From a candidate division WWE3 bacterium (lineage in GTDB: Bacteria; Patescibacteriota; WWE3; UBA101185; UBA10185), in assembly GCA_014729135.1 (NCBI GenBank), contig WJKK01000001.1, forward strand, positions 455,599-519,598: 64,000 bases of DNA, given 5' to 3'. The first letter of the stretch is position 1, and each line of letters begins with the position of its first letter. Position numbers and translations under genes: made by a program. The notes beneath the pieces were generated by a model. That model searched no databases, had not been told where the DNA came from, and worked only from the letters and a program-made list of their open reading frames with translations. Below are positions 12,139-61,753 of this stretch, one piece after another.

Positions 12139-15100
12139 ATGCTTAAATTCTTTTCTATTTTTAGGGATTATTCGGGATTCATTGGGGGTGACCAACTTTG
12201 GCTTCTTAATCCCTCTTTCAAGGGTATTTTACAGTCCGTCGCAACCTTTAATTACGGATCTGTTTCTTTTATTTCTGAGTTTTTCCCGTTGCAGGCCCTA
12301 TATTTGTTGTTTTCTGGGGTTGACCTAATTTACTTTCAATTGTTTTATGTCCTTTTTTTACACATAGTTGCTATTGTATCCTTTCATTTTTTATTACGCA
12401 CTCTTTTCAAGAGGGTATTTTTAGGGGTATCTCTCCTTTATGGCGCGAATTGCTTTGTAGTATCCTCATTTTTTCAGGATCGCTTAATGCCCATTTTTGC
12501 ACTATTTCCTCTTATATTCTTACTGTACTACAGACTGTTACACCAAAGAGATCTGAAATCTATTCTTTTTATCTCTCTATTAACCCCATTTTTCTCTGGG
12601 TCGTTGATTAACCCCCCTGTTGTTTTGTCTTTCTGTCTAATCCTCTTTCTTTATTTTGTCCACTATATCTATACTGAGAGAGATGTCGACTGGTCTTTCC
12701 TTTTACTCAGTCATTTTGCGTTGGGTTTTTTACTGATACTTGTTAATTTTTGGCACTTGACTACTTTAATTCCCTTTTTATTGTCTGGCTCGGATATCTC
12801 TTCTAAGGTTAATAGTTTTCGTGCTACAGGATCAGGTTATCTCTTTGATCACTTTAGGCTGCTGGGGCGTTGGTCCTGGTATACAGGCCATTACAAGTAT
12901 CCCTATTATTTGCATGCTTCCGACTACTATAAATTTCCCCTGATAGTTATTACTTATAGCACGCTTCTTTTTCCCTTGATATTCCTATACAAACTGTTGT
13001 CTTCCTGGCAGTATTCTAAGAAAGATAAAAGGTTGTACTCCTTTGCTGCTTTCCTATATCTGGTATCCATTTTTTTGGTTAATGGTTCAAAGCATCTTTT
13101 AGGTGTCCTGTTCAATTTGGTCTATTTATCTCATCCCTATTTTTGGATATTCCGGGAGCCTTATACCAAGTTTATGCCCCTCGCTGTATTCTCTCTGCCT
13201 ATAATATATAATGGTGCTTTTCTTTACGCTAGCCGTAAATTTAAGAGAGTAACTTACAGGCTTATCGCTGCTCTTTTCTTTCTGTTTATTTCTCTTGGGG
13301 TATACCCCATTGTCCTGGATAAGTTCAGCCCTGGTTATTGGAATGGAAATATGCGGTCTACCTTCTTCAAGATACCTAAGTACTGGGTGGAACTACGTTC
13401 TTACCTGCAAAAGGATTTTGGGGGTCATAAGAGGTTATTTGCTTTCCCTTATACAACTTATGGTACTGCCTACAATTGGTTGGAAGGGCTGTCCTCTACC
13501 ACTGACTTTGGCCGGCTCTATTTAGATATGTCTAACGTAAGTGCCACTCCCTTTAGTCTTAAATACTCCGACTTCATTATAAATAGCATTTACTCTCCCA
13601 GCGAGGCTACCTATTCTGCAAATTTTTTAGGTTTTCTCAATATCTTTTATGTTATTCAAGAAAACGATGTAGATTGGCGTTATGCCAGCTCCCGTACATT
13701 AGATCCTCAAAAGATGAATCAAATCATTTCCTCTATGGATTTAGAGCTTATAGAAACTTTTGGTCAATTTACCCCTAATTACTTGGAGCAGATTCCAAAT
13801 GAGGAACCTGATGATTCTCTCCGTAACGAAATGTACGTTAAGCTTTTGGGAGAGCCCGGCCTTGAGCTATATAAAATTCCTGATAAATACTACCTTCCGA
13901 AATTTTACGTTCCTAATCAGTACAATCATGTTTCTGGAAACTTTGATGATTTATTGAAACTGTATTCCGCCGAAAATACTGTTCGTGAGCCTGTCTACTA
14001 TTTTAGTTCAGAAGGATATCCTCAGACAGACTTTAGTGCACGTCCCCAACCTAGCAGGACCTTTGTGATAGGTTATTTGGATGAACCTCGTATAGATTTC
14101 GGTAAGCTTTTTTGGCATGAAGGCTGGGGTCTTCCTTCTGTGTCGGTAAATCCTAAAGATTCGAAGTACCGGCTGGTGCTATTAAAAGAGGGTGTGGAAA
14201 TTTTCAAAGAGCGGGACTATCTGCAGGAGGCCGATTTGCACGTTTGGTTTGCCTCCAAGCGTGTTGCCGAAATACAGGAGTTTGAGTTAAAAGGTGCTGC
14301 TTTAGAGCGCGCCGTTGATAACCTAGAAGGTCACTTGAATAGGGCTATGTTCTTACTTGAAGAGAATCCTGTTTTGGAATTTGATGCCGAAGCATATGAG
14401 ACTTATTGGGGTATGGTCGCAAAGGTGTTGATGTATAGCCAGAACAATATTGCTGCTCTGAAGGACTATCCTGCAGTAGAGTCTTCTGCCATTGAAGCTT
14501 TAATAGAGCGGTGTCATGCGTTTTACACATGGATAGAATCCCGCAATGATTACTCCTGTGAAGATACCTCTGTACCTTGTTACGTCTTTGATGTTCCCGT
14601 TGGCGGGGAGTATGAGTTTTCCGGGGGAGATGCGCGGATATTCCTGGAATCAGGCGAGTATAGCCGTAATGTACCTTCTGACTTTCCTTTAGTGAAGGCG
14701 GTGGAATCTCTTCCTTTGGAGGTTTTGTCTCCTACTGTGGAGATCCCTAATTGGGATGCGGACAAGGACTACCGTGTTTCCTTTGATTACAAGATTTTAA
14801 ATAGTTCCGTAGAAGTGGGTGTGCTTGAAGAACAATGGGACTATGGTGTGATAGGAGATGAGATTGGAAAGGTGGATTGGGAAAAAGTTCGCCAGGGCGA
14901 TTTTCCCGTGAGGAGGGAGCGGACTCAAGAACATGTTTTGAACTCTTCTCAAATCTGCTTCAGGGAAGGTGCGGTTTGTTATTCCAACTTCGAAATGATA
15001 GTAAATCCCTCTCGGAATAGTGTCGCCGGTTCCATTTATTTTAAGTTACCCTTGGAACAGGATTTTACAAAGAAGATTGAGATTAAGAATATTAAAATAG

Positions 15101-15663
15101 AGGAGTATACTGAGCCCTTTGTTTACTTGAAAGCTTTGGAGGTGTTGTCTCCCAAAGAACAGACTCCCCAAATAGAGTTTGAACGGGTAAATCCGACCAA
15201 ATATAAAGTACAGGTCTCCGGAGTGACCTCGCCTTTTGATTTGGTTTTTATTGAAAGCTATCATAAAGGGTGGAAACTTTATGCTCCTCAAAGTTCCAGG
15301 AGTATCGCTTTAAGGGATAGGTTTTTTGCATTGTTTGCAAATATCGGGCGCGGCTTGGTAGATGTTTTTGAATTAAATCTAGTAGCTGACTCGGGAATAT
15401 TCTTAGATAGTAAGACTTTTGAAACTTGGGGTAAGGAAGCGGTTCCTTTTGAAAATCACTTTATAGCAAATGGTTTTGCCAATTCCTGGAGAGTTACACC
15501 TGAAATGGTTGAGGATGGGGAAGGTACCTTTATTGTTGAATTTTGGTATCAGAGGTTGTTTTATGTGGGAATTTTTATTTCTGGTTTAACCTTTATTTTA
15601 GTTTGTACGTACTTAGTTATTGTTTTTCTAAAGAATGCCTACACCCAAGTGGTTAAAAGATAA
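12139..15663 (+). CDS. 1174-aa polytopic membrane protein with a GT-C-like architecture (YfhO/AftD-like): ~420-aa multi-TM N-terminus, ~700-aa extracytoplasmic domain, C-terminal TM anchor
   Basis: Hydrophobicity pattern. The C-terminal segment 'ESYHKGWKLY...FIANGFANSWRV...FIVEFWYQRLFYVGIFISGL' resembles the conserved C-termini of YfhO/AftD-type glycosyltransferases. Confidence 0.55.
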   Translation: MLKFFSIFRDYSGFIGGDQLWLLNPSFKGILQSVATFNYGSVSFISEFFPLQALYLLFSGVDLIYFQLFYVLFLHIVAIVSFHFLLRTLFKRVFLGVSLLYGANCFVVSSFFQDRLMPIFALFPLIFLLYYRLLHQRDLKSILFISLLTPFFSGSLINPPVVLSFCLILFLYFVHYIYTERDVDWSFLLLSHFALGFLLILVNFWHLTTLIPFLLSGSDISSKVNSFRATGSGYLFDHFRLLGRWSWYTGHYKYPYYLHASDYYKFPLIVITYSTLLFPLIFLYKLLSSWQYSKKDKRLYSFAAFLYLVSIFLVNGSKHLLGVLFNLVYLSHPYFWIFREPYTKFMPLAVFSLPIIYNGAFLYASRKFKRVTYRLIAALFFLFISLGVYPIVLDKFSPGYWNGNMRSTFFKIPKYWVELRSYLQKDFGGHKRLFAFPYTTYGTAYNWLEGLSSTTDFGRLYLDMSNVSATPFSLKYSDFIINSIYSPSEATYSANFLGFLNIFYVIQENDVDWRYASSRTLDPQKMNQIISSMDLELIETFGQFTPNYLEQIPNEEPDDSLRNEMYVKLLGEPGLELYKIPDKYYLPKFYVPNQYNHVSGNFDDLLKLYSAENTVREPVYYFSSEGYPQTDFSARPQPSRTFVIGYLDEPRIDFGKLFWHEGWGLPSVSVNPKDSKYRLVLLKEGVEIFKERDYLQEADLHVWFASKRVAEIQEFELKGAALERAVDNLEGHLNRAMFLLEENPVLEFDAEAYETYWGMVAKVLMYSQNNIAALKDYPAVESSAIEALIERCHAFYTWIESRNDYSCEDTSVPCYVFDVPVGGEYEFSGGDARIFLESGEYSRNVPSDFPLVKAVESLPLEVLSPTVEIPNWDADKDYRVSFDYKILNSSVEVGVLEEQWDYGVIGDEIGKVDWEKVRQGDFPVRRERTQEHVLNSSQICFREGAVCYSNFEMIVNPSRNSVAGSIYFKLPLEQDFTKKIEIKNIKIEEYTEPFVYLKALEVLSPKEQTPQIEFERVNPTKYKVQVSGVTSPFDLVFIESYHKGWKLYAPQSSRSIALRDRFFALFANIGRGLVDVFELNLVADSGIFLDSKTFETWGKEAVPFENHFIANGFANSWRVTPEMVEDGEGTFIVEFWYQRLFYVGIFISGLTFILVCTYLVIVFLKNAYTQVVKR

Positions 15664-16000
15664 AAAGAGTATTTTGCAGAAATTTCGGAGTGTGGGAGTT
15701 GCGGGCACACTAACACCTATCCTGGCCTTGGGAATGTTTGTTGATATTTTCCTTTTAGAAAAAGATGCAAATCTTCTAGTGGCATTTCTTTTGATTATTG
15801 TGCTTATTCTTATGCGCTCTCTTTCTTTAGGGTGGGAGTTCTTTATGAAGGTTGGTTTGGGATTCTTAGCCACTTTTCCTTTTTTTGTTTGGATTGATGC
15901 CTGGGCCATTGCAGAAAAGATGGCTGTTTGGTGTTACCTTTCTTTGTTTATTTCCTGCGTGAAACTGTTGGTGCGGGTGCGAGAGGAGAATTCATGCTAG
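15635..16000 (+). CDS. small membrane protein (121 aa)
   Basis: ATG overlaps the 3' end of the upstream gene. Its TAG (15998-16000) overlaps the next ATG (15994). Three hydrophobic segments. Confidence 0.45.
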   Translation: MPTPKWLKDKKSILQKFRSVGVAGTLTPILALGMFVDIFLLEKDANLLVAFLLIIVLILMRSLSLGWEFFMKVGLGFLATFPFFVWIDAWAIAEKMAVWCYLSLFISCVKLLVRVREENSC

Positions 16001-17541
16001 TTCTGGGCGGTTTGGATGATCAACTTTCATTTTTAATATGGACAAAAGTTTCTGAGAGCGTTTTTCAGCTGCCTTCTGCGTATAGTTTTTACCAAGATAA
16101 GCTCTGGGGTTTTATTCGGCCATTTGCCACAAGTAGACCGCTGTTCTCTTTTTTAAGTTCTGTCCTGGGTACTTTACTGGGGAGTTATGCTTATCCTCTG
16201 TTGATTGTTGTTTCAATAACTTTGGGGTTTTACTTTGTGCACAGGTTTTTTGGTCGTAGGAGATATACGATCGGTTATGCCCTGCTGTTTGTTTTTTCCG
16301 CCTACTTTTGGAATCATTACGATATTCATTTACCCTTGGCGCAGCTGTGGTTGGTCCCGCTGCTTCTTATGGATCTCAAAAAACGTTGTGTTTTACTTAT
16401 TGGCTTCCTTTTTGCCGCATCTTTGGCCGTTTCCAACTACATCGGATTCTTTCTCTTGATTTACTTTACACTTTACTCCTTCCTTAAATTTATTTATGAA
16501 AAAGATTGGAGATATGTTAAGAAATTTGCAGTAGTCTCAGCTCTTACGGCACTGTTTTCGCTCCCTTTTCTGTTTCCCTTTATTCGCGCCAATTATATCC
16601 GCCCGCCGATGGAGGTTGTCTCCACGGTGCAAGTCGTTCAGCGCCCCTACGAAGACTTTTTCCACTTCAGCTCTCGTCCTTGGTATTTTTTCATCCCTCC
16701 TGTTAAGAATCCTTGGTTAGGAGAGGTGGGACAAAAGATGGTTGCGCGTTTGGAGGCTACAAATTATTTTTTGGCGGATGATTATTTTCCGGGGGAACAT
16801 TCAGCTAATTACTTTGGCTTAATCTTTCTTATTTCTGTTACGGTTTTATCTATACTTGTTCTTCGAAGTGATTCTTCTGCTCCGAAGAAAAAGATAACCT
16901 TTTATTGGGTTTTGAACTTTTTGCTTTACCTTTTTATGCTTCCCCCGTTTTTTACTATTTCCGGGATAAAGATCTATACACCCGGAGAGTTGATGTACCG
17001 CTTTTTCCCTATGTTTAGGGTGACTACTAGGATGGCTCCGTTGTTGCTCTTAAATTTTCTGATTATCTTGGCAACTTCTGTGGATTACCTTTCGCGCCAG
17101 TCCGAAAAGTATAAGAAGTTCTTTCGGGTTTTTGTGCCGGTTTTAACCCTGATTACTTTAGCTGAGACTTTTATTCCCCCCAAAATTGTTTATTACAATG
17201 AACCCCCTGCCGTCTACTCCTATTTAGGTGAAATAGCCTCTCAGAAGAAGTTCGCCGTCTATCCCTATAGCCAAACGGATGAGGCTTTCTTCTGGTTAGA
17301 TGCTCATAAGGCCTATTTATTGAACCTCCGTGGTTATTCGGAGGAGGTTTATAACACAGAAGTTTTTACTAAGTCCCTTCCTACTCTAGGGGGAATCTCG
17401 ATCCTGGGGTCCCTAGGGGGAGAGTATCTGGTGGTATATAGGGATATTCCAAAAGAAGAGTTTGAATTTTTTTCAACAACCTCTCAGTTAGTGAGGGTGA
17501 AGGAGTTCCCAAATTCGGTGATCTATAAGGTGGTTAAATGA
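15994..17541 (+). CDS. polytopic membrane protein (515 aa; GT-C-like?)
   Basis: Start chosen at ATG 15994, which is preceded by AGGAG (15984-15988). The track shows an in-frame upstream start at 15928. More than 10 predicted TM helices. Confidence 0.6.
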   Translation: MLVLGGLDDQLSFLIWTKVSESVFQLPSAYSFYQDKLWGFIRPFATSRPLFSFLSSVLGTLLGSYAYPLLIVVSITLGFYFVHRFFGRRRYTIGYALLFVFSAYFWNHYDIHLPLAQLWLVPLLLMDLKKRCVLLIGFLFAASLAVSNYIGFFLLIYFTLYSFLKFIYEKDWRYVKKFAVVSALTALFSLPFLFPFIRANYIRPPMEVVSTVQVVQRPYEDFFHFSSRPWYFFIPPVKNPWLGEVGQKMVARLEATNYFLADDYFPGEHSANYFGLIFLISVTVLSILVLRSDSSAPKKKITFYWVLNFLLYLFMLPPFFTISGIKIYTPGELMYRFFPMFRVTTRMAPLLLLNFLIILATSVDYLSRQSEKYKKFFRVFVPVLTLITLAETFIPPKIVYYNEPPAVYSYLGEIASQKKFAVYPYSQTDEAFFWLDAHKAYLLNLRGYSEEVYNTEVFTKSLPTLGGISILGSLGGEYLVVYRDIPKEEFEFFSTTSQLVRVKEFPNSVIYKVVK

Positions 17542-20774: not shown

Positions 20775-20861
20775 CATCTTTATTAGGGTATATTTACCTG
20801 TTATACTCTGCTTGTTTTTAAGATATTGAAAATCTAAGGAGATGGAAGGAGGGTGAGTGAG

Positions 20862-21662
20862 ATGGATAAGCGAGAAATTGGAGTTACGAGTATGGCGTTT
20901 TTCCCCTGGGTTTTACTACCGGGGGGACTGTTACTGGTAAATAGGTGGTCGCGAAAAGCCGGCTATGATTTTTTGCAGCCGGTTCCCTCTCGCGGGATTT
21001 TTCCATTTGTATTGCGAAGGATCCCCGCGGATCGAATTCCCCACACCCAGGGTTCGTGGCACCCGCGTCCGGGCCGTCCTCTTATGGCAGTTGCGCGGCA
21101 GTTTGGGTTGGTGGGGGACGAGTGGCCCTTGCCCGAAGATTGGATAGTCTTTGCCTCCGCGCGGCTGGTTGAGTGTCGCCTAAAACTTTTTCAGAGGAAC
21201 TTTCCGGATGTTCGTCGTGTAGGCCACAGCTGGGGAGACCCCCTTTTGGAGGTGAATCCCGACCTATTGACTTCCGCAGGGGAGCAGCCTGCTCTCGGTG
21301 ATCTTCTGGACTATCCGGGAGATCTAGTGATTGATCTCTGGCATGTTCGAAGAGAAGGTTGGCAGGGACAAGCTCCCTTGACCTCCGAACCCGTGGAGTT
21401 TTTTCAACAACTCCTATTTTCGGGTAAAGTAGTCCTTGTCCATTTTCAACCAGCGCGAGATGGTGCAGAGCTGGGAAGGTTTCTCCGGGGGGAACCAACG
21501 GTTTTGGATGAATTACTAGCTCTCCTACGTTTGTACCCGCGGATTCCTCTAGTGGTGGAGCTGGCTCCGCCCTCCACTGCGCCTGCCTCCTGGATGTTCC
21601 CCAGGTCGGCAATTCAGGGCCTGATTCAGGTCCGTCAGCGCATAGAAGAGGTCCTAACCTAG
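20862..21662 (+). CDS. hypothetical protein encoded on a GC-rich island (no recognisable domain)
   Basis: 266-269 aa ORF (GTG 20853 or ATG 20862), preceded by GGAGATGGAAGGAGGG. Local GC is ~58-62% against ~40% flanks. Pro/Arg/Ala/Gly-rich codon usage. A strong terminator follows. Confidence 0.55.
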   Translation: MDKREIGVTSMAFFPWVLLPGGLLLVNRWSRKAGYDFLQPVPSRGIFPFVLRRIPADRIPHTQGSWHPRPGRPLMAVARQFGLVGDEWPLPEDWIVFASARLVECRLKLFQRNFPDVRRVGHSWGDPLLEVNPDLLTSAGEQPALGDLLDYPGDLVIDLWHVRREGWQGQAPLTSEPVEFFQQLLFSGKVVLVHFQPARDGAELGRFLRGEPTVLDELLALLRLYPRIPLVVELAPPSTAPASWMFPRSAIQGLIQVRQRIEEVLT

Positions 21663-21729: not shown

Positions 21730-23220
21730 ATGAGAGCCATCCTAAAAAAACACCCCTTCCTTACAATCGTAATCTCAGCCACACTTGTATACTTTTTCTC
21801 CTGGTTTTTTGCATGGAAAATTGGCGTTAACGACTTACCTATTCAATCCGAAGACACTTTACCCGCCATTTTTATGCCCGTTACAATCCTAAAAGAAGGC
21901 ACAATTTACCTTGACTCCTATTACGACATGCTTCTTTCGCGCTATCCTCACCCTGATGATAAGAGTTATGAAAAGGGGTTAGTTCCTTTTTATTTGCGGG
22001 AAGTGATTTCAGATTCACGGAATGACACACACTACGTCTCTGCATTTACTATAATAACGCCTCTGCTGGCTTTGCCGGTTTATTTTCTTCCGGTTCTTTT
22101 GGGAGTTTCTATAAATTGGACAAACTTGATTGTCCTTTCTCATTTAGCAGCTTCCTTCATTGTTGCTTTATCCGGTGGGTTTCTCTATTTGCTTTTAAGG
22201 AAGCACTTTTTTTCTCAAGATTCCGGCAAAACCTTTTTTAAACAAAAATCTCTATTGCTTACTGCAATTTATTTATTTGCAACCATAAATTTTGCGCACA
22301 TTTCTCAAGCTCTTTGGCAACACGGGACAGTTCAACTTTTTACGATTTTGGCTCTTTGGGCAATTTACGAAAAACGCTACCCTCTCACCGGACTCTTTTT
22401 TGGCTTAATGATCCTTTCTCGCCCCACCTCCGCCATCCCTGTCACCCTTCTTGGTTTAGCAGCCCTGACGAATTTGTTCAATACTTCTCCCTCTTCACAG
22501 GTTGAAGCCTCAGAAAGGAAAACTGAGAACACCTCTTTTAAGCGAACTTTTGCAGACCGCTATTGCGGTCGAAACGTGAGTCTAAAAGATGGTGTTCTCA
22601 GTTTAATTGCGCTTTCTTTAGGTTTCTTGCCTACCTTAATCTTCTTCCTCTGGTACAACAAAACCTACTACGGCAACATCTCCAATCAAGGCTACTCCAA
22701 CCAAATCTTCACCGAATGGAAAGGACGCTTCCCTGAAGGCTTCCTAGGCCTTTGGATCTCCCCATCAAAAGGAATCCTAATTTACTCACCAATCTTTATC
22801 TTTTCTCTTGCCGGCCTCTATTTAGCCGTCAAAAACCGGAAACAAAACTTAAACTGCATAATCCTTGGCTTAATCGTCTTAATTCACACACTTGTCCTTG
22901 GAAAATGGAAGCACTGGTATGGGGGATGGTCCTTTGGCTATCGCATGGCCTCCGATGTAATTCCCTTTTTAATCTTACTAATGGTCCCCTTTATAAAATC
23001 CTCCCATTTTCAAAAAGCAAAAAACTTATTTTTCATACTTTTTGGCCTTTCAATTTTTGTCCAATTCTTTGGAATAGTCTTTTACGATGGAACTTGGCAT
23101 TCTGCTTATGATCTGGGATATGAAAACACCTCTTGGCTTTGGTCCTTAAAAAATAGCGAACTAATCTTCAACATTCGTAGAGTACTTGTAAAAACAGGCT
23201 TACGCGCCACACCTTTTTAG
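21730..23220 (+). CDS. polytopic membrane protein (496 aa; possible GT-C/mannosyltransferase-like)
   Basis: About 12 predicted TM helices with a large loop. No soluble domain. Confidence 0.55.
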   Translation: MRAILKKHPFLTIVISATLVYFFSWFFAWKIGVNDLPIQSEDTLPAIFMPVTILKEGTIYLDSYYDMLLSRYPHPDDKSYEKGLVPFYLREVISDSRNDTHYVSAFTIITPLLALPVYFLPVLLGVSINWTNLIVLSHLAASFIVALSGGFLYLLLRKHFFSQDSGKTFFKQKSLLLTAIYLFATINFAHISQALWQHGTVQLFTILALWAIYEKRYPLTGLFFGLMILSRPTSAIPVTLLGLAALTNLFNTSPSSQVEASERKTENTSFKRTFADRYCGRNVSLKDGVLSLIALSLGFLPTLIFFLWYNKTYYGNISNQGYSNQIFTEWKGRFPEGFLGLWISPSKGILIYSPIFIFSLAGLYLAVKNRKQNLNCIILGLIVLIHTLVLGKWKHWYGGWSFGYRMASDVIPFLILLMVPFIKSSHFQKAKNLFFILFGLSIFVQFFGIVFYDGTWHSAYDLGYENTSWLWSLKNSELIFNIRRVLVKTGLRATPF

Positions 23221-50676: not shown

Positions 50677-51939
50677 ATGAGTTTAATTAAGTCAATTACT
50701 GCCTATAAAGTTTTAAATTCCCGTAGTGACTGGACGGTTAGGGCGCAGGTGACTCTAGAGGATGGTACGGTTGCAAGTCAGACGGTTCCTGAAGGTGCTT
50801 CTAAAGGGGAAAATGAGTCTATTTCGGTTCCTATTGATGAGGCAATTAGAAATATTCGCATTGACATAGCGCCTGCTCTTGTAGGCAAGTCTCCTTTTAA
50901 TCAGCGTGATATTGACGAAACCATGATTAAGCTGGATGGTACTGATAATGACTCTAATTTAGGTGGGAATGCGGTTTTGGCGGTTTCTTTAGCTGTTGCT
51001 AAGGTGGCTGCTAAGTCTCAAGGGAAGGAGCTTTATACGTATTTGCGGGATTTGTATTTGGAAGGTAATGATAGTGCTGATTCCGGCGAGGCTCCTAAGG
51101 GCTCGGACTTTAAGTTTCCAACTCCGGTTTTTAACATTTTAAATGGTGGAAAGCATGCGCAAAATGGGCTTCCCTTTCAGGAGTTTATGGTTATTCCTGC
51201 TATGAATTTATCTTACGAGAAAAAGTTGGAGGTTGGTGTTGCTTGTTACAAGACTTTAAAGGAGCATCTTCATTCGGAGGATCTTTCCATTGGTGTTGGT
51301 GATGAGGGTGGTTTTGCTCCTGTAGGTTTGTCGGTTAAGGAGGCTTTGGATAAGCTGGTTTCTGCTGTTAAGGAGGCAAATTTTACTTTAGGCAAGGATG
51401 TTTTTTTGGGAACGGATGTGGCAGCGGGCAGTTTTTATGATCAGGAGCGTAGTTTGTACATTTTTGAGGATGCCGGTATGGAGCTTACTACTGATGAGTT
51501 TTTTGACTTTTATGAAGGCCTTTTAAAGGATTATCCTTTGATTTACGTGGAGGATCCCTTATTTGAAGCTGATTTTGCTGCTTGGCATAAGTTTTTTGGT
51601 CGCTTTAAGGAGAAAACCATGGTAGTTGGGGATGATTTGGTTGTAACTAATGCTAAGATTTTGGAAAAGGCTCTGCAGGAAAAGACTATTAATGCGGTTA
51701 TTGTGAAGCCTAATCAGGTGGGCAGTTTAACGGAGACTTTTGATTTTGTTCGTTTAGCACAGGAAAATGGTTTGGTGGTTACGGTTTCTCACCGGAGTGG
51801 TGATACAGCAGAGGATACCTTTGTTTCGGATTTAGCGCTGGCTGTGGGAGCTGACTTTGTTAAGTTTGGTGCTACAGCACGTGGAGAGCGTGTTGTTAAG
51901 TACAACCGAATTCTGGAAATCTACCACCAAAAAACTTAG
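50677..51939 (+). CDS. eno: enolase
   Basis: 'KPNQVGSLTETFDFVRLAQENGLVVTVSHRSGDTAEDTFVSDLALAVGA' plus N-terminal 'ITAYKVLNSRSDWTV'. ATG 50677 is preferred over the TTG at 50635 used by the track. Confidence 0.85.
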   Translation: MSLIKSITAYKVLNSRSDWTVRAQVTLEDGTVASQTVPEGASKGENESISVPIDEAIRNIRIDIAPALVGKSPFNQRDIDETMIKLDGTDNDSNLGGNAVLAVSLAVAKVAAKSQGKELYTYLRDLYLEGNDSADSGEAPKGSDFKFPTPVFNILNGGKHAQNGLPFQEFMVIPAMNLSYEKKLEVGVACYKTLKEHLHSEDLSIGVGDEGGFAPVGLSVKEALDKLVSAVKEANFTLGKDVFLGTDVAAGSFYDQERSLYIFEDAGMELTTDEFFDFYEGLLKDYPLIYVEDPLFEADFAAWHKFFGRFKEKTMVVGDDLVVTNAKILEKALQEKTINAVIVKPNQVGSLTETFDFVRLAQENGLVVTVSHRSGDTAEDTFVSDLALAVGADFVKFGATARGERVVKYNRILEIYHQKT

Positions 51940-52055
51940 ATCTCAATTACGACTATTGCTGTTTATCTGGATATATTTTTTATGACTTGCATAAACTTAT
52001 CTTGGATTTTAGTATTGGTGTATATCAAATTATTTAGTAAAGGAAAGGGCAAATC

Positions 52056-53166
52056 ATGTTGAAGGATCCTAGAAATACAAATTTAGCTAAGGTGTTAGTT
52101 GAGCATTCCCTAGAGGTTGGTAAAGGTGATAATGTAGTTATTTCTACTTCCGATCTTTCCACCGGGTTGTTGGGTATTAAAGTATGATTCTGATGATTTT
52201 GGGGACAAAATTTTTGTACGAAGTAATGGGACTAAGGTTTATACTGCAAAAGATACCGCTTATCATCTTTGGAAGTTTGGCCTTTTGGGTAAGGACTTTT
52301 TATATAAATTATGGGATTCTGAATCCTTGACTCAGCCGACTTATCGGACTTCCCTGGAAGGTAAATCTTTCGATTCCTTCGGTAGTGCGGATATCATTGT
52401 TAACTTGATCGATGAACGTCAAACATATCCTCAAGAGATGGTTAAGCATGCCCTACATAGTTTGGGTTATGCAGAAGAGGCTGCGGAATATAATCACATA
52501 GCGTATGGAGTTGTTTCACTTTCAAAGGATACCGCGGAAGCTCTCGGAGTGGAAGTTTCGGATGACAAAGAAGTTTATGCTATGTCCGGTCGTAAGGGAA
52601 TCGGAGTAAAGGTTACCGATTTACTTGATTTATTGTGTAAGGAAATTTCGCAAATCCAGAGGAAATCCGGAGTTGATTTAACAGATCCAGATCTTGCCTC
52701 CTCTCAAGAGATAGCATTGGCAGCTATAAAGCACTATATGCTAAAAAATAATCCCTACACACCTATCTTGTTTGATTACAAGCAGGCGCTGAAATTAGTG
52801 GGGAATACAGGTCCTTACCTTCAGTATTCTCATGCACGTGCTTGCAGTATCTTAAAGAAATTTGAGCCCTTTGACACTAGTTGTACTAAGGGAGCGGAAC
52901 TTGCCTCAACTGAAGAGGCATTGTTAAAAGATTTGGAAAGTTGGCCTTTTATAGTAGGTCGTGTCTTGGAGGACTTCAACTTAGCCATTTTGTCGGAGTA
53001 TGCCTTTACTTTAGCGCAATCTTTCCACACGTTTTATGAGCATAACAATGTCTCTCAGTCAGAAGGTTCTGTTAAAAATTTTCGTCTAACCTTGATTCTG
53101 GCTTTTACTAAAGTTATGCAAGAGGTTTTGCAGGTTATGGGTATTTCTGCTCCTAAAAGGATGTAG
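52056..53166 (+). pseudogene. argS: chimeric gene remnant. The first ~29 codons (ATG 52056) look like an M29 aminopeptidase N-terminus and are fused in frame to the middle of arginine--tRNA ligase. A +1 frameshift (extra T at ~52258-52261) follows, then an intact 293-aa ArgRS C-terminal half. The HIGH region is absent.
   Basis: Frame 0: 'MLKDPRNTNLAKVLVEHSLEVGKGDNVVI' is AmpS/PepS-like. 'GCWVLKYDSDDFGDKIFVRSNGTKVYTAKDTA' is the ArgRS 'GALWFDL..FGD..V.RKSDGT.TY.TRDIAYH' block. Frame +1: 'YHLWKFG...', 'AMSGRKGIGVKVTDLLDL' and the DALR anticodon-binding 'GPYLQYSHARACSILKKF'. Only 340 nt separate the enolase stop from this block, so about 280 N-terminal ArgRS codons are missing. Confidence 0.6.
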
Positions 53167-53170
53167 TTTC

Positions 53171-54550
53171 TTACTCAATCACATAAGCAGCATAGTCTTG
53201 GCCTAGTTGAGTTTCTATAGTTGCAGTTTCCTCATCGCTTAATTCTTCAAAGTACTTTCTAAAACATCGAATAGAGTTTCCATGACAAGAAACTGCTACA
53301 TTAATCTGTTTTTCCTTCATTTCCTTAACGAGATCCTCTGCAAAAGCGCTAACACGTTTATAAACCATGCCAATGCTTTCTCCATGTGGGGGCTGTCCAT
53401 GATAAGTCCTTCTAATACGATGCAAAAACTCCGGATCCTTTTTATGCCACTCTAACTTACTTTGTCCCTGTAAATCACCATAGGAGCGCTCTTTAATACG
53501 TTCATCCTTTTCAATTTTTAAGTTCTTAGCGCTTTCATTTTTAGACATTGCAATTTTCATAGTTTGGAGTGCTCGCTTTTGCGGGGAAGATATTAGCTTA
53601 TCTATTTTTTTATCCTTTAACTTTTCTGCCAAAACTTCCGCCTGCTCTTCTCCTCTTTCTGTTATTGGAGCTGTTCTCCATCCGCTAAAGACGTATTTTT
53701 TATTGTCTACACTTTCACCATGCCTAAAAATATACAAAGTAGGTTTCTCATTGGATTCCTCTTTAGGCAGTTCATCTACCTCACGATACTCTAAACGAGC
53801 TTCTACTTCTGCTAATTCTTCCTTTGTTATTTCAGGAACCGGCTTATTCTTTAACTCTTTGTACTTTGCTAAAATCTCCGGATGATCTTTTTCATTTGGA
53901 ACTTCTTTCAACAGAGTTCCCTTCTCGCGCTTTCTATAAAAGTAGTAAAACCCTACGGCTAGGGCAGCTAAAAACAGTATTTCCATAATAGTAGAAGCAC
54001 TCTCAATCCCCTCAGATAACTGCTCGGAAGCAGCTAATCCCGTAAAGCCTAAATAAAGGAAAAACAAGTTTCTAACAATGCTTCCTAAAAAAGTTCCAAC
54101 AGCAAAAACTTTATAGTTTAATTTAATTAATCCGCAAACCACCGAAATAGGGGAGCTTGGCATAACAGGGATGCTTCTTAAAATTGTAAGAGTGGTGTAG
54201 TCTCTGGTGGTACCTTCAAAGCGGGAGCCAATTTTTTCTACATGTTTATGAGAGATTCCTAAGAACTTGCCAAATTTGCCAACGACTAAGTCTTCTCCCA
54301 AGTCAGCTAAAAAGTATAAAACGCTTGCACCTATGACTCTTCCAAAAGCGCCAAAAACTGCTACTACTCCTAAATACCAAAGAGCCTTTTGCTGCGCCTG
54401 CGCTATGCTTCCTGTGGCGGTCATTACAAAGGGGGAGGGGATTGGTGCAATAATCTCCTCGACAATTGTTCCTAGGACGCTAAAAAGTTCTAAGGGAATT
54501 GATCTTGCTAATGTTTCCAGATATGTGGTTATTTCAGTTATGAAATGCAT
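53171..54550 (-). CDS. fusion protein: DedA/SNARE-associated (TVP38-like) membrane domain + 2,3-bisphosphoglycerate-dependent phosphoglycerate mutase-like histidine phosphatase domain
   Basis: Residues 1-200 have DedA-like TM helices. Residues ~265-459: 'LYIFRHGESVDNKKYVFSGWRTAPITERGEEQA' (RHG catalytic motif; compare GpmA 'RHGESQWNKENRFTGW'), 'ERSYGDLQG' and 'HGNSIRCF'. Single uninterrupted frame with no internal Met/RBS. Confidence 0.7.
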   Translation of the reverse strand: MHFITEITTYLETLARSIPLELFSVLGTIVEEIIAPIPSPFVMTATGSIAQAQQKALWYLGVVAVFGAFGRVIGASVLYFLADLGEDLVVGKFGKFLGISHKHVEKIGSRFEGTTRDYTTLTILRSIPVMPSSPISVVCGLIKLNYKVFAVGTFLGSIVRNLFFLYLGFTGLAASEQLSEGIESASTIMEILFLAALAVGFYYFYRKREKGTLLKEVPNEKDHPEILAKYKELKNKPVPEITKEELAEVEARLEYREVDELPKEESNEKPTLYIFRHGESVDNKKYVFSGWRTAPITERGEEQAEVLAEKLKDKKIDKLISSPQKRALQTMKIAMSKNESAKNLKIEKDERIKERSYGDLQGQSKLEWHKKDPEFLHRIRRTYHGQPPHGESIGMVYKRVSAFAEDLVKEMKEKQINVAVSCHGNSIRCFRKYFEELSDEETATIETQLGQDYAAYVIE

Positions 54551-55333: not shown

Positions 55334-55939
55334 TCAAGAGTTTTGTTTTTTTAGGACATTTTCAAAGCTTATATTCAGATGTCGTTGTATAAAACGGATG
55401 TCCTCGGTATTGGTTGTTATTTGTCTGTGATTTGCAAAGTAGACTCTGGTTAAGTCTTTAATATCGTCCCTTATTCTTCTTTCTGTGGATTCGATCAGGG
55501 TTCTTAATGTTTTGTGATCTTGGAAGCGCTCGTCACTTGTTTTATAGTCAATCTCTTTAATTTCCTCCTTAAGATTTTTCTCCATGTTTTTCAGGTCATT
55601 TTCTACTTGTTTTAATTTATTTGCCAGCTTAGTCTGTTTTCCTTTAACTGACTTTAGGTCTGTTTTGACGCCTTTGATATCCGTTTTTAGGTCTGTTTTA
55701 ACGCCTATGATGTCCTCTTTTAAGTTTGCTTTAACGGCTTTGATATCCTCTTTCAGGTTTGTTTTAACACCTATGATATCCTCTTTTAGATCTGTTCTAA
55801 CGCTTTTGATATCCTCTTTTAACTCTTTTCTCAGAGCGTCAATCTTTGTGTTCAACTTAGTATCCAAGTCATTTATAAGGTTTGCTATTTCTTCAATTTG
55901 CATTACTTTAAATTTACCAAAACCCCCTAAACATGTCAA
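55334..55939 (-). CDS. hendecad (11-residue) repeat, K/D/E-rich coiled-coil/amphipathic-helix protein
   Basis: Six or more tandem 11-aa units 'VKTDLKEDIKG' (LKEDIKSVRTD / LKEDIIGVKTN / LKEDIKAVKAN ...). True start is probably Met13 (MQIEEIANL), directly behind TTGACA-17-TAAATT (leaderless). Confidence 0.6.
   Translation of the reverse strand: MTCLGGFGKFKVMQIEEIANLINDLDTKLNTKIDALRKELKEDIKSVRTDLKEDIIGVKTNLKEDIKAVKANLKEDIIGVKTDLKTDIKGVKTDLKSVKGKQTKLANKLKQVENDLKNMEKNLKEEIKEIDYKTSDERFQDHKTLRTLIESTERRIRDDIKDLTRVYFANHRQITTNTEDIRFIQRHLNISFENVLKKQNS
55625..55822. repeat. about six tandem 33-bp DNA repeats (e.g. GTCTGTTTTAACGCCTATGATGTCCTCTTTTAA) encoding the hendecad units
   Basis: Units phased at 55658, 55691, 55724, 55757 and 55790, with a degenerate unit at 55625. 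Confidence 0.75.
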
Positions 55940-60811: not shown

Positions 60812-61753
60812 GTGAAGAACCTTAGCTTAAAAACAAATTACTCTGTTAATCTTTTCCATTTCGTGGATTCTCTCTCTCGTTGGGATTATTATGTGTCGCC
60901 TCATATACTGGAATTTTTTCAAAGAAATTGGGAGGTTACAGAAGAGGATAAAAAGTTACTAGGGGAGTATAGAAAAAGCAGAAAAGTTTTTGGGTGGGCT
61001 GCTATCTCGGAATTACTTGCATGGTCTTACGCAAAGTTTCCCCACCACAAGGAGTATTCTCCGCTATTTTCTATAATTTCTCACTTCGAATTTCGAGAAG
61101 ATTTATCCGGAAATTCCCTACAATGTAACATCAGCGCCATACTTGAGGAGCTGAATTTTGGAATTGCTTATATGAGGAAAATGATGGTGGACTCTCACCT
61201 TGAAGAAAGGCTGATTAAGATACAGGAACTTTTTGATTCAGAAAGTCCTGATAGCCCTATACCTGTTTATGTTCTCTATTCTTACGAAGAGGGCTCTAGT
61301 TCCGGAAATGCAGATGGTAATTCTATCTATGTTGAGATTCCTAAAGGGGGTGAATTTGAACGGGCCTATCAGATACTTGTACATGAATACGCACATAAGA
61401 TAATACATCCAAATAGTTATTTTCGGGAGTCCTCCTCTGCGCTCGTTCGGGATCTTTCACGGAAAGTGTACCCGCACGTATATAAGGACGAACTCTACGG
61501 CTTTTTTGAGGAAGCCGTAATCTATGCGCTATGTGAAATCCTTTTCTTTTCCCACGATCCTGATCAGAAGATTCAAAATTTGAAAAGGTCTTCTTCCTTA
61601 TCTGATGTAGCTAAGGGTAGATATGCCCACATCTGGAGACTTTCTAAGAACCTAACTTCTCTTTTTGATTTGTATCTACGCGGTATCAAATCCGCTGATG
61701 TGACAATAAAGGATCTAGAAAGAACGCTGGTGAATTATATTGGAGGTGTCTAG
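60812..61753 (+). CDS. hypothetical protein with an HExxH motif ('ILVHEYAHKIIHP'), possibly a zinc metallopeptidase-like fold
   Basis: 313-aa ORF. The single HExxH is followed by a downstream Glu/His. No other family signature. Confidence 0.45.
   Translation: MKNLSLKTNYSVNLFHFVDSLSRWDYYVSPHILEFFQRNWEVTEEDKKLLGEYRKSRKVFGWAAISELLAWSYAKFPHHKEYSPLFSIISHFEFREDLSGNSLQCNISAILEELNFGIAYMRKMMVDSHLEERLIKIQELFDSESPDSPIPVYVLYSYEEGSSSGNADGNSIYVEIPKGGEFERAYQILVHEYAHKIIHPNSYFRESSSALVRDLSRKVYPHVYKDELYGFFEEAVIYALCEILFFSHDPDQKIQNLKRSSSLSDVAKGRYAHIWRLSKNLTSLFDLYLRGIKSADVTIKDLERTLVNYIGGV

Follow-up and report, generated by a model that had tools for sequence, protein, structure and literature searches.

What is left of argS, the ArgRS gene, downstream of eno in the genome of this candidate division WWE3 bacterium, and how did the gene come to be cut to half its length? 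In the window (the whole 64,000-nucleotide stretch of DNA analysed here), an intact eno is followed by a short coding head with its own ribosome-binding site and ATG, which meets, one base out of frame, the C-terminal half of an archaeal-type ArgRS. ArgRS is a universally essential enzyme. We ask what each of the two joined parts is, whether the joint reflects an event in the genome or a fault of the assembly, and what the remaining half could do.

Layout of the locus and its reading frames

The locus consists of the following features, given with window coordinates, strand, identity, and the data on which the identification is based.

50677-51939, forward strand: eno (enolase), the intact upstream neighbour (NCBIfam TIGR01060, E 5.9e-125; exact sequence look-up)
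52039-52049, forward strand: Shine-Dalgarno-like sequence AAAGGAAAGGG, its end 6 nt upstream of the start codon (ATG, 52056) (direct sequence reading)
52056-52163, forward strand: gene head with an ATG start, 36 codons in frame 0 (MLKDPRNTNLAKVLVEHSLEVGKGDNVVISTSDLST) (codon-usage log-odds, ribosome-binding site, ATG)
52056-52187, forward strand: the 43-codon head ORF in frame 0, from the ATG start to a TGA stop
52155-52166, forward strand: junction interval between the head and ArgRS (end of the head similarity and start of the ArgRS homology)
52165-53166, forward strand: ArgRS C-terminal half, stop codon included, corresponding to residues 298-630 (Pfam, NCBIfam, tblastn, and the match to structure 2ZUE)
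52185-52187, forward strand: TGA closing the 43-codon head ORF after seven ArgRS-derived codons read out of frame
52285-52287, forward strand: TTG, the first canonical start in the ArgRS frame, opening a 293-aa ORF (52285-53166), with GGAAG 9 nt upstream
52438-53166, forward strand: first in-frame ATG to the stop, a 242-aa product (MBD3366204.1)
53171-54550, reverse strand: convergent neighbour, a fusion of a DedA/UptA-like domain and a histidine-phosphatase (dPGM-family) domain (domain searches, sequence look-up)

In NCBI, eno is MBD3366203.1, named phosphopyruvate hydratase, and the 242-aa product is 'hypothetical protein GF360_02545 [candidate division WWE3 bacterium]', encoded on a contig of 864,248 bp. 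The stop of the convergent gene lies 4 nt from the argS stop, and the 3' end of argS is thus in its natural setting.

Three-frame translation of 51940-52420 places the opening of the ArgRS frame after the TAG at 52135-52137 (that is, from 52138), and the frame ends with the stop at 53164-53166. Translation runs through FGDKIFVRSNGTKVYTAKDTAYHLWKFGLLGKDF... and ...PPGCWVLKYDSDDFGDKIFVRSNGTKVYTAKDTAYHLWKFGLLGKDFLYKLWDS... in one frame with no break; the extra T and the frameshift that a preliminary description of this DNA had placed at 52258-52261 are not there. The only change of frame falls at about 52155-52166, where, around the GGG run at 52164-52166, the ArgRS frame is shifted by one base relative to that of the head. 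The ORF that begins at 52056 had been taken to continue directly into ArgRS, whereas it is read in the other frame and ends at the TGA at 52185-52187; likewise, the distance between eno and the ArgRS block, earlier put at about 340 nt, is 225 nt when measured from the eno stop at 51939. The first 40 codons of the ArgRS homology hold no in-frame start codon; the first canonical start in the ArgRS frame is the TTG at 52285, and hence 52285-53166 (293 aa) is all that the ORF finder lists of it. The earlier statement that a 293-aa half is intact is right as to intactness and short as to extent, since the 293 residues are counted from that TTG and the homology begins 40 codons earlier, with GCWVLK at 52165.

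The ArgRS half that is present and the half that is missing

The C-terminal 333 residues of an archaeal-type ArgRS are encoded in an uninterrupted frame at 52165-53166. In the tblastn search, residues 298-630 of the closest full-length relative found, the 630-aa ArgRS of an uncultured bacterium (locus L001), align to 52165-53163 with 54% identity (E 9e-115). According to Pfam, the anticodon-binding domain DALR_1 (PF05746) is complete at the C-terminus (E 1.8e-26, profile positions 1-117 of 117), and tRNA-synt_1d (PF00750) is present in part, namely, at profile positions 231-349 of 349, the last third of this catalytic-domain model. Of the NCBIfam models, NF002447 matches over profile positions 300-613 of 613 with 229.7 bits, below its cut-off of 460, and TIGR00456 scores 167.5 bits, also below its cut-off (261.65). 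The best solved structure in the PDB search is ArgRS of Pyrococcus horikoshii (2ZUE, residues 321-629), which assigns the sequence to the archaeal-like type of ArgRS. This type also occurs in Paenibacillus, Dormibacterota, Thermoanaerobaculia, and a few CPR genomes (loci L003-L045), and archaeal proteins are also among the database matches to the N-terminal half of the L001 enzyme; no other WWE3 protein is among the top matches listed.

The retained part comprises the distal catalytic core and the DALR anticodon-binding domain. Its similarity to archaeal-type enzymes (2ZUE/2ZUF; NF002447) is colinear and conserved over residues ~298-630, including the GCWVLK...YTAKDTAYHLWKFG block, the NxIDxRQxYPQ block, the MSxRxG (KMSKS-equivalent) loop, present as AMSGRKGIGVK and lying in invariant alignment columns, and the DALR domain ending in ...GISAPKRM. 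Unlike these enzymes, the remnant is missing ~297 residues (Add-1 domain, HIGH motif, and first Rossmann half), scores below the 460-bit cut-off, and has no start codon where the homology begins. Profile, tblastn, and structure matches agree on this point, and they bear out the earlier proposal that argS has been cut down to its C-terminal half, with HIGH and the first Rossmann half gone.

The missing half was searched for with tblastn and the family HMM in six frames, and neither yielded a match in the 64-kb window to residues 1-297 of L001. The Add-1 profile (PF03485) does not match the head, which is only 36 residues long, and the bulk of the Add-1 domain is certainly absent. Among the top 120 database matches to the N-terminal half of the L001 enzyme, none comes from the 864,248-bp source contig; an N-terminal half about 50% identical would have come top of this ranking. 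According to the established architecture of class I synthetases, a protein with no HIGH motif, first Rossmann half, or Add-1 domain cannot activate arginine. Judged from its sequence, the argS remnant as assembled is catalytically dead and cannot be active as a synthetase.

Such an arrangement is not typical of the family. In 79 out of 80 species-representative genomes with an archaeal-type ArgRS, the N- and C-terminal halves are contiguous and encoded in one frame, and the remaining one, a long-read MAG (locus L047), has a frameshift; since these 79 genomes have a single ORF, neither truncation nor splitting is a trait of the ArgRS family.

Half-length products of the ArgRS family are nevertheless common in databases on long contigs, both "DALR-only" (345-465 aa) and "N-terminal-only" (326-470 aa), e.g., P0003, P0069, P0080, P0085, P0106, P0131, P0132, P0214, and P0215. 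In the one case inspected, L047 (9127-10933), the two halves of ArgRS are adjacent and lie in different frames, which suggests that these products are frameshift artefacts rather than split genes.

The retained half carries no marks of decay. The stop-free run of 343 codons (52138-53166) has a chance probability of ~1e-10 at the local base composition. At the 52 positions conserved in at least 95% of 78 relatives, the remnant keeps 48 residues, the same count as the L001 enzyme, and its four changes are all conservative; moreover, every invariant column of an eight-sequence family alignment is kept. GC content, GC3, GC skew, and AT skew all lie within 0.3 SD of the means of 47 other genes of the window. 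The remnant is, therefore, a native, undecayed coding sequence. A recent horizontal origin was also considered and rejected, given that base composition and skews deviate by at most 0.3 SD from the window gene means. The preliminary description had named a loss and an artefact as alternatives, and the undecayed state proves compatible with either a very recent loss or an artefact.

The coding head and the junction

The head (52056-52163) scores 0.67 bit per codon in frame 0 in the codon-usage log-odds, compared to -1.0 and -1.2 in the other two frames; this score is higher than that of 89% of true in-frame 36-codon windows from this genome and is reached by none of 794 off-frame windows. With its ribosome-binding site, ATG, and native codon usage, the head is the true 5' end of a gene, and its strong frame-0 signal means that the junction joins two coding sequences, as a deletion would do.

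The head had been described as opening like an M29 (AmpS/PepS) aminopeptidase, and a fusion of the 5' end of such a gene to the 3' half of argS by a deletion, from an ancestral order eno - pepS - argS, is possible, though in our view doubtful. Pfam reports no family other than Peptidase_M29 (PF02073) for the head, which is real coding sequence, and the match is positionally sensible, N-terminus to N-terminus: query residues 6-33 align to profile positions 4-31 of 406, with the weak pattern LAxxLVxxSLxVxKGDxVVI that is seen at the N-terminus of M29 proteins (AmpS/PepS/aminopeptidase T). The resemblance thus stands as a weak pattern, whereas its significance does not: the match reaches 12 bits (E 0.089), where the gathering threshold is 27, and one of nine shuffled or reversed controls, a reversed one, matched an unrelated family equally well (E 0.059). 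In profile searches, 52056-53166 thus matches the C-terminal half of ArgRS, as had been expected, and stays below threshold for M29 at its start. The catalytic, metal-binding C-terminal domain of M29 is missing, the head ORF ending after 43 codons. The head has no match in NCBIfam and no candidates in a word-indexed search of 5.8 billion proteins; an exhaustive phmmer search of 1.84 billion representatives (E <= 0.001) returned two ankyrin-repeat proteins only, and the PDB search designed repeat proteins only, with no M29 structure. No relative with the order eno - M29 - argS was found, the related eno loci being at most 43% identical and non-syntenic.

The head could equally be the poorly conserved N-terminus of argS itself, in which case the deletion would be internal to the gene. 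This is compatible with the data and the simpler assumption, as it needs fewer steps than a fusion with the start of another gene. Against the HMM of the ArgRS N-terminus the head scores 0.0 bits, with 624 out of 5000 shuffles equal or better, but genuine N-termini score as poorly: in a leave-one-out analysis, the first 37 residues of genuine close ArgRS relatives obtain -0.8 to 6.3 bits. Smith-Waterman comparison of the head with 64 real ArgRS N-termini gives p 0.1-0.18, in a test that, according to the leave-one-out analysis, has no power. In tblastn against 88 loci, the head produces chance matches only, including KVLVEH against KVLVEHTS of the strand before HIGH. The origin of the head, be it M29 or argS, is orthogonal to the question of whether the locus reflects a deletion, an artefact, a retained fragment, or a split enzyme.

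The junction is delimited by the weak similarity of the head, which extends to about 52154, and by the ArgRS homology, which begins at 52165. If any single base directly before 52165 is deleted, the head and ArgRS residues 298-630 form one ORF of 369 aa; a single-base change at this point could thus permit an expressed fusion of the two. The junction contains neither Ns nor low-complexity sequence. No repeat of at least 14 nt in the window matches it, so there is nothing in the window to make an assembler skip sequence, and among repeats, promoters, and terminators that might explain the junction, nothing above chance was found. The frame opened by an ATGA overlap at 52184 is the third one and not that of ArgRS. 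Programmed frameshifting or recoding was rejected, as the junction has no slippery or RF2-like site.

Origin of the truncated gene

The most likely reading, which we put forward tentatively, is a real and recent deletion, which would have left the remnant catalytically dead, a functional argS lying elsewhere in the genome. The deletion would have taken the DNA for roughly ArgRS residues 37 or 1 (depending on the origin of the head) to 297, possibly together with the rest of the upstream gene, and would have brought a true gene start (ribosome-binding site, ATG, and 36 codons, 52056-52163) up against ArgRS codon 298 (52165), with the two frames differing by one base. The remnant would then be a pseudogene, giving at most a fragment of 242-293 aa through internal initiation, and arginylation would probably be provided by another argS in the ~0.86-Mb genome. 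For the deletion we count the restriction of ArgRS homology to residues 298-630 in one frame, the absence of the N-terminal half from the window, the lack of an N-terminal half from the source contig among the top 120 matches, the unsplit gene in 79 out of 80 relatives, and the native composition of the remnant. The locus resembles bacterial pseudogenes and remnants made by deletion in that a coding sequence which has lost its 5' part follows another coding start out of frame, between intact neighbours. It is unlike older pseudogenes in having undergone no secondary decay (stops, indels, or lost conserved residues), which is consistent with a deletion that is evolutionarily recent, and unlike bacterial pseudogenes in general in that the affected gene is normally essential and single-copy.

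An artefact of assembly or consensus is less likely, yet it is a serious competitor. Here, an intact argS of ~630 aa would lie 3' of eno, and the MAG contig would be short by ~0.8-2 kb the assembler having made a mis-join, followed a chimeric read path, or picked a minority deletion variant. The universal essentiality of ArgRS argues for this, as do the native composition and wholly undecayed state of the remnant, which are those expected from half of a working gene: a native, undecayed remnant would also fit the sole ArgRS of the organism, and its real loss would then be lethal. The source is a MAG with no independent assembly in the databases, the protein clusters are all single-member, and the NCBI annotation of the remnant is that of a plain hypothetical protein. 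On the other side, the window holds no repeat (at least 14 nt) that could mediate a skip, the junction is free of Ns and of low-complexity sequence, and all other genes of the window that were examined are intact, among them PGM/PMM, pps (PEP synthase), eno, LexA, GT2s, UvrB, PBPs, and the DedA-histidine phosphatase fusion, so neither degradation nor assembly errors are widespread in the window.

Retention of the C-terminal half as a free-standing, expressed tRNA(Arg)-binding protein is improbable. The product would be 242-293 aa long if translated through internal initiation, or, should a sequencing error account for the one-base offset, a 369-aa fusion with the head. In favour of retention, the fragment has lost neither the DALR domain nor any family-invariant residue, a ribosome-binding site and an ATG head lie directly upstream, one base from being in frame, and the TTG at 52285 has GGAAG 9 nt upstream. 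Precedents exist as well: in humans, the DALR-domain protein DALRD3 targets tRNA-Arg for METTL2 (PMC7237682), and NCBIfam describes NrtL (NF045898), a 327-aa 'ArgS-related anticodon-binding protein'. Like both, the remnant has an intact DALR_1 domain and no functional catalytic site, and its length (242-333 aa) is comparable to that of NrtL (327 aa). However, it scores 19.4 bits with the NrtL model against a cut-off of 340, only the DALR part aligning (positions 210-326 of 327), and so is not a member of this family. In contrast to free-standing DALR proteins, the remnant is a straight ArgRS orthologue (54% identical to the intact enzyme) rather than a diverged paralogue, and no partner enzyme is evident for it; a search of the literature on NrtL or truncated ArgRS yielded nothing usable. 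Besides, the break cuts through the middle of the catalytic core instead of falling between domains, the protein would carry half of a Rossmann fold that is functionless alone, the head and ArgRS are out of frame as assembled, the architecture is absent from homologues in 80 related genomes, and a recent event explains the lack of decay equally well.

Should the junction be real and the WWE3 genome have no other argS, the cell would have to obtain arginyl-tRNA or ArgRS from a host or partner, or else the C-terminal half would have been kept as a tRNA(Arg) anticodon-binding protein; we regard this combination as quite improbable. The fragment could in this case be expressed from the upstream ribosome-binding site and the ATG head, one base off frame.

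Natural split synthetases are exemplified by LeuRS of Aquifex and AlaRS of Nanoarchaeum, and the C-terminal half considered here is intact, but a split ArgRS, made up of two polypeptides pairing in trans, with the gene for the N-terminal half at another place in the genome, is highly improbable, given that this half is missing from the 64-kb window, that no protein of the source contig is among the top 120 database matches to it, that no proper start codon stands where the C-terminal homology begins, and that the family is unsplit in 79 out of 80 genomes, the exception being the frameshift in the long-read MAG.

If the deletion is real, a synthetase gene that is normally essential has been caught very soon after its inactivation in a reduced-genome CPR bacterium, and a second, replacing argS is implied, which would make the locus an example of synthetase displacement. 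If the junction is an artefact, the locus is a local error in a public MAG, whose remnant is now listed as a 'hypothetical protein'. Neither the deletion nor the artefact reveals a new mechanism: the locus is nothing out of the ordinary in kind, being either a broken gene or a local fault of the assembly, albeit with an unusual target, and it is not a new system. The remnant should be annotated as 'arginine--tRNA ligase, C-terminal fragment / pseudogene', and the practical value of the finding lies in such curation and in caution with metabolic or essential-gene completeness calls on this genome.

Gene order and other features of the window

No gene order is common to the window and either the argS locus of L001 or the eno loci from metagenomes (at most 43% identity), and the window contains no Rfam families or tRNAs. 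The convergent gene at 53171-54550 (reverse strand) encodes 459 aa, with the DedA/UptA-like membrane domain at residues 23-208 and the histidine-phosphatase/dPGM-family domain at residues 265-451; this fusion lies beside the pgm-pps-eno cluster and is annotated as a hypothetical protein only.

Three large ORFs have no Pfam match, namely, 12139-15663 (1174 aa) and 60812-61753 (313 aa) at an E cut-off of 1e-3, and 15928-17541 (537 aa) at 1e-5. Two further ORFs, also with no Pfam matches, look like a compositionally foreign pair: 20853-21662 has a GC content of 0.551 compared to the window mean of 0.40, and 21730-23220 (496 aa) has a coding-strand GC skew of -0.21, the most extreme of the few negative values (the two others are -0.02 and -0.11). 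Finally, the ORF at 55334-55939 (reverse strand) encodes a 201-aa protein with repeats of the form (K/T)EDIK.VK.(D/N)LK and a weak Apolipoprotein-like match, and is overlapped by an antisense ORF of 134 aa.
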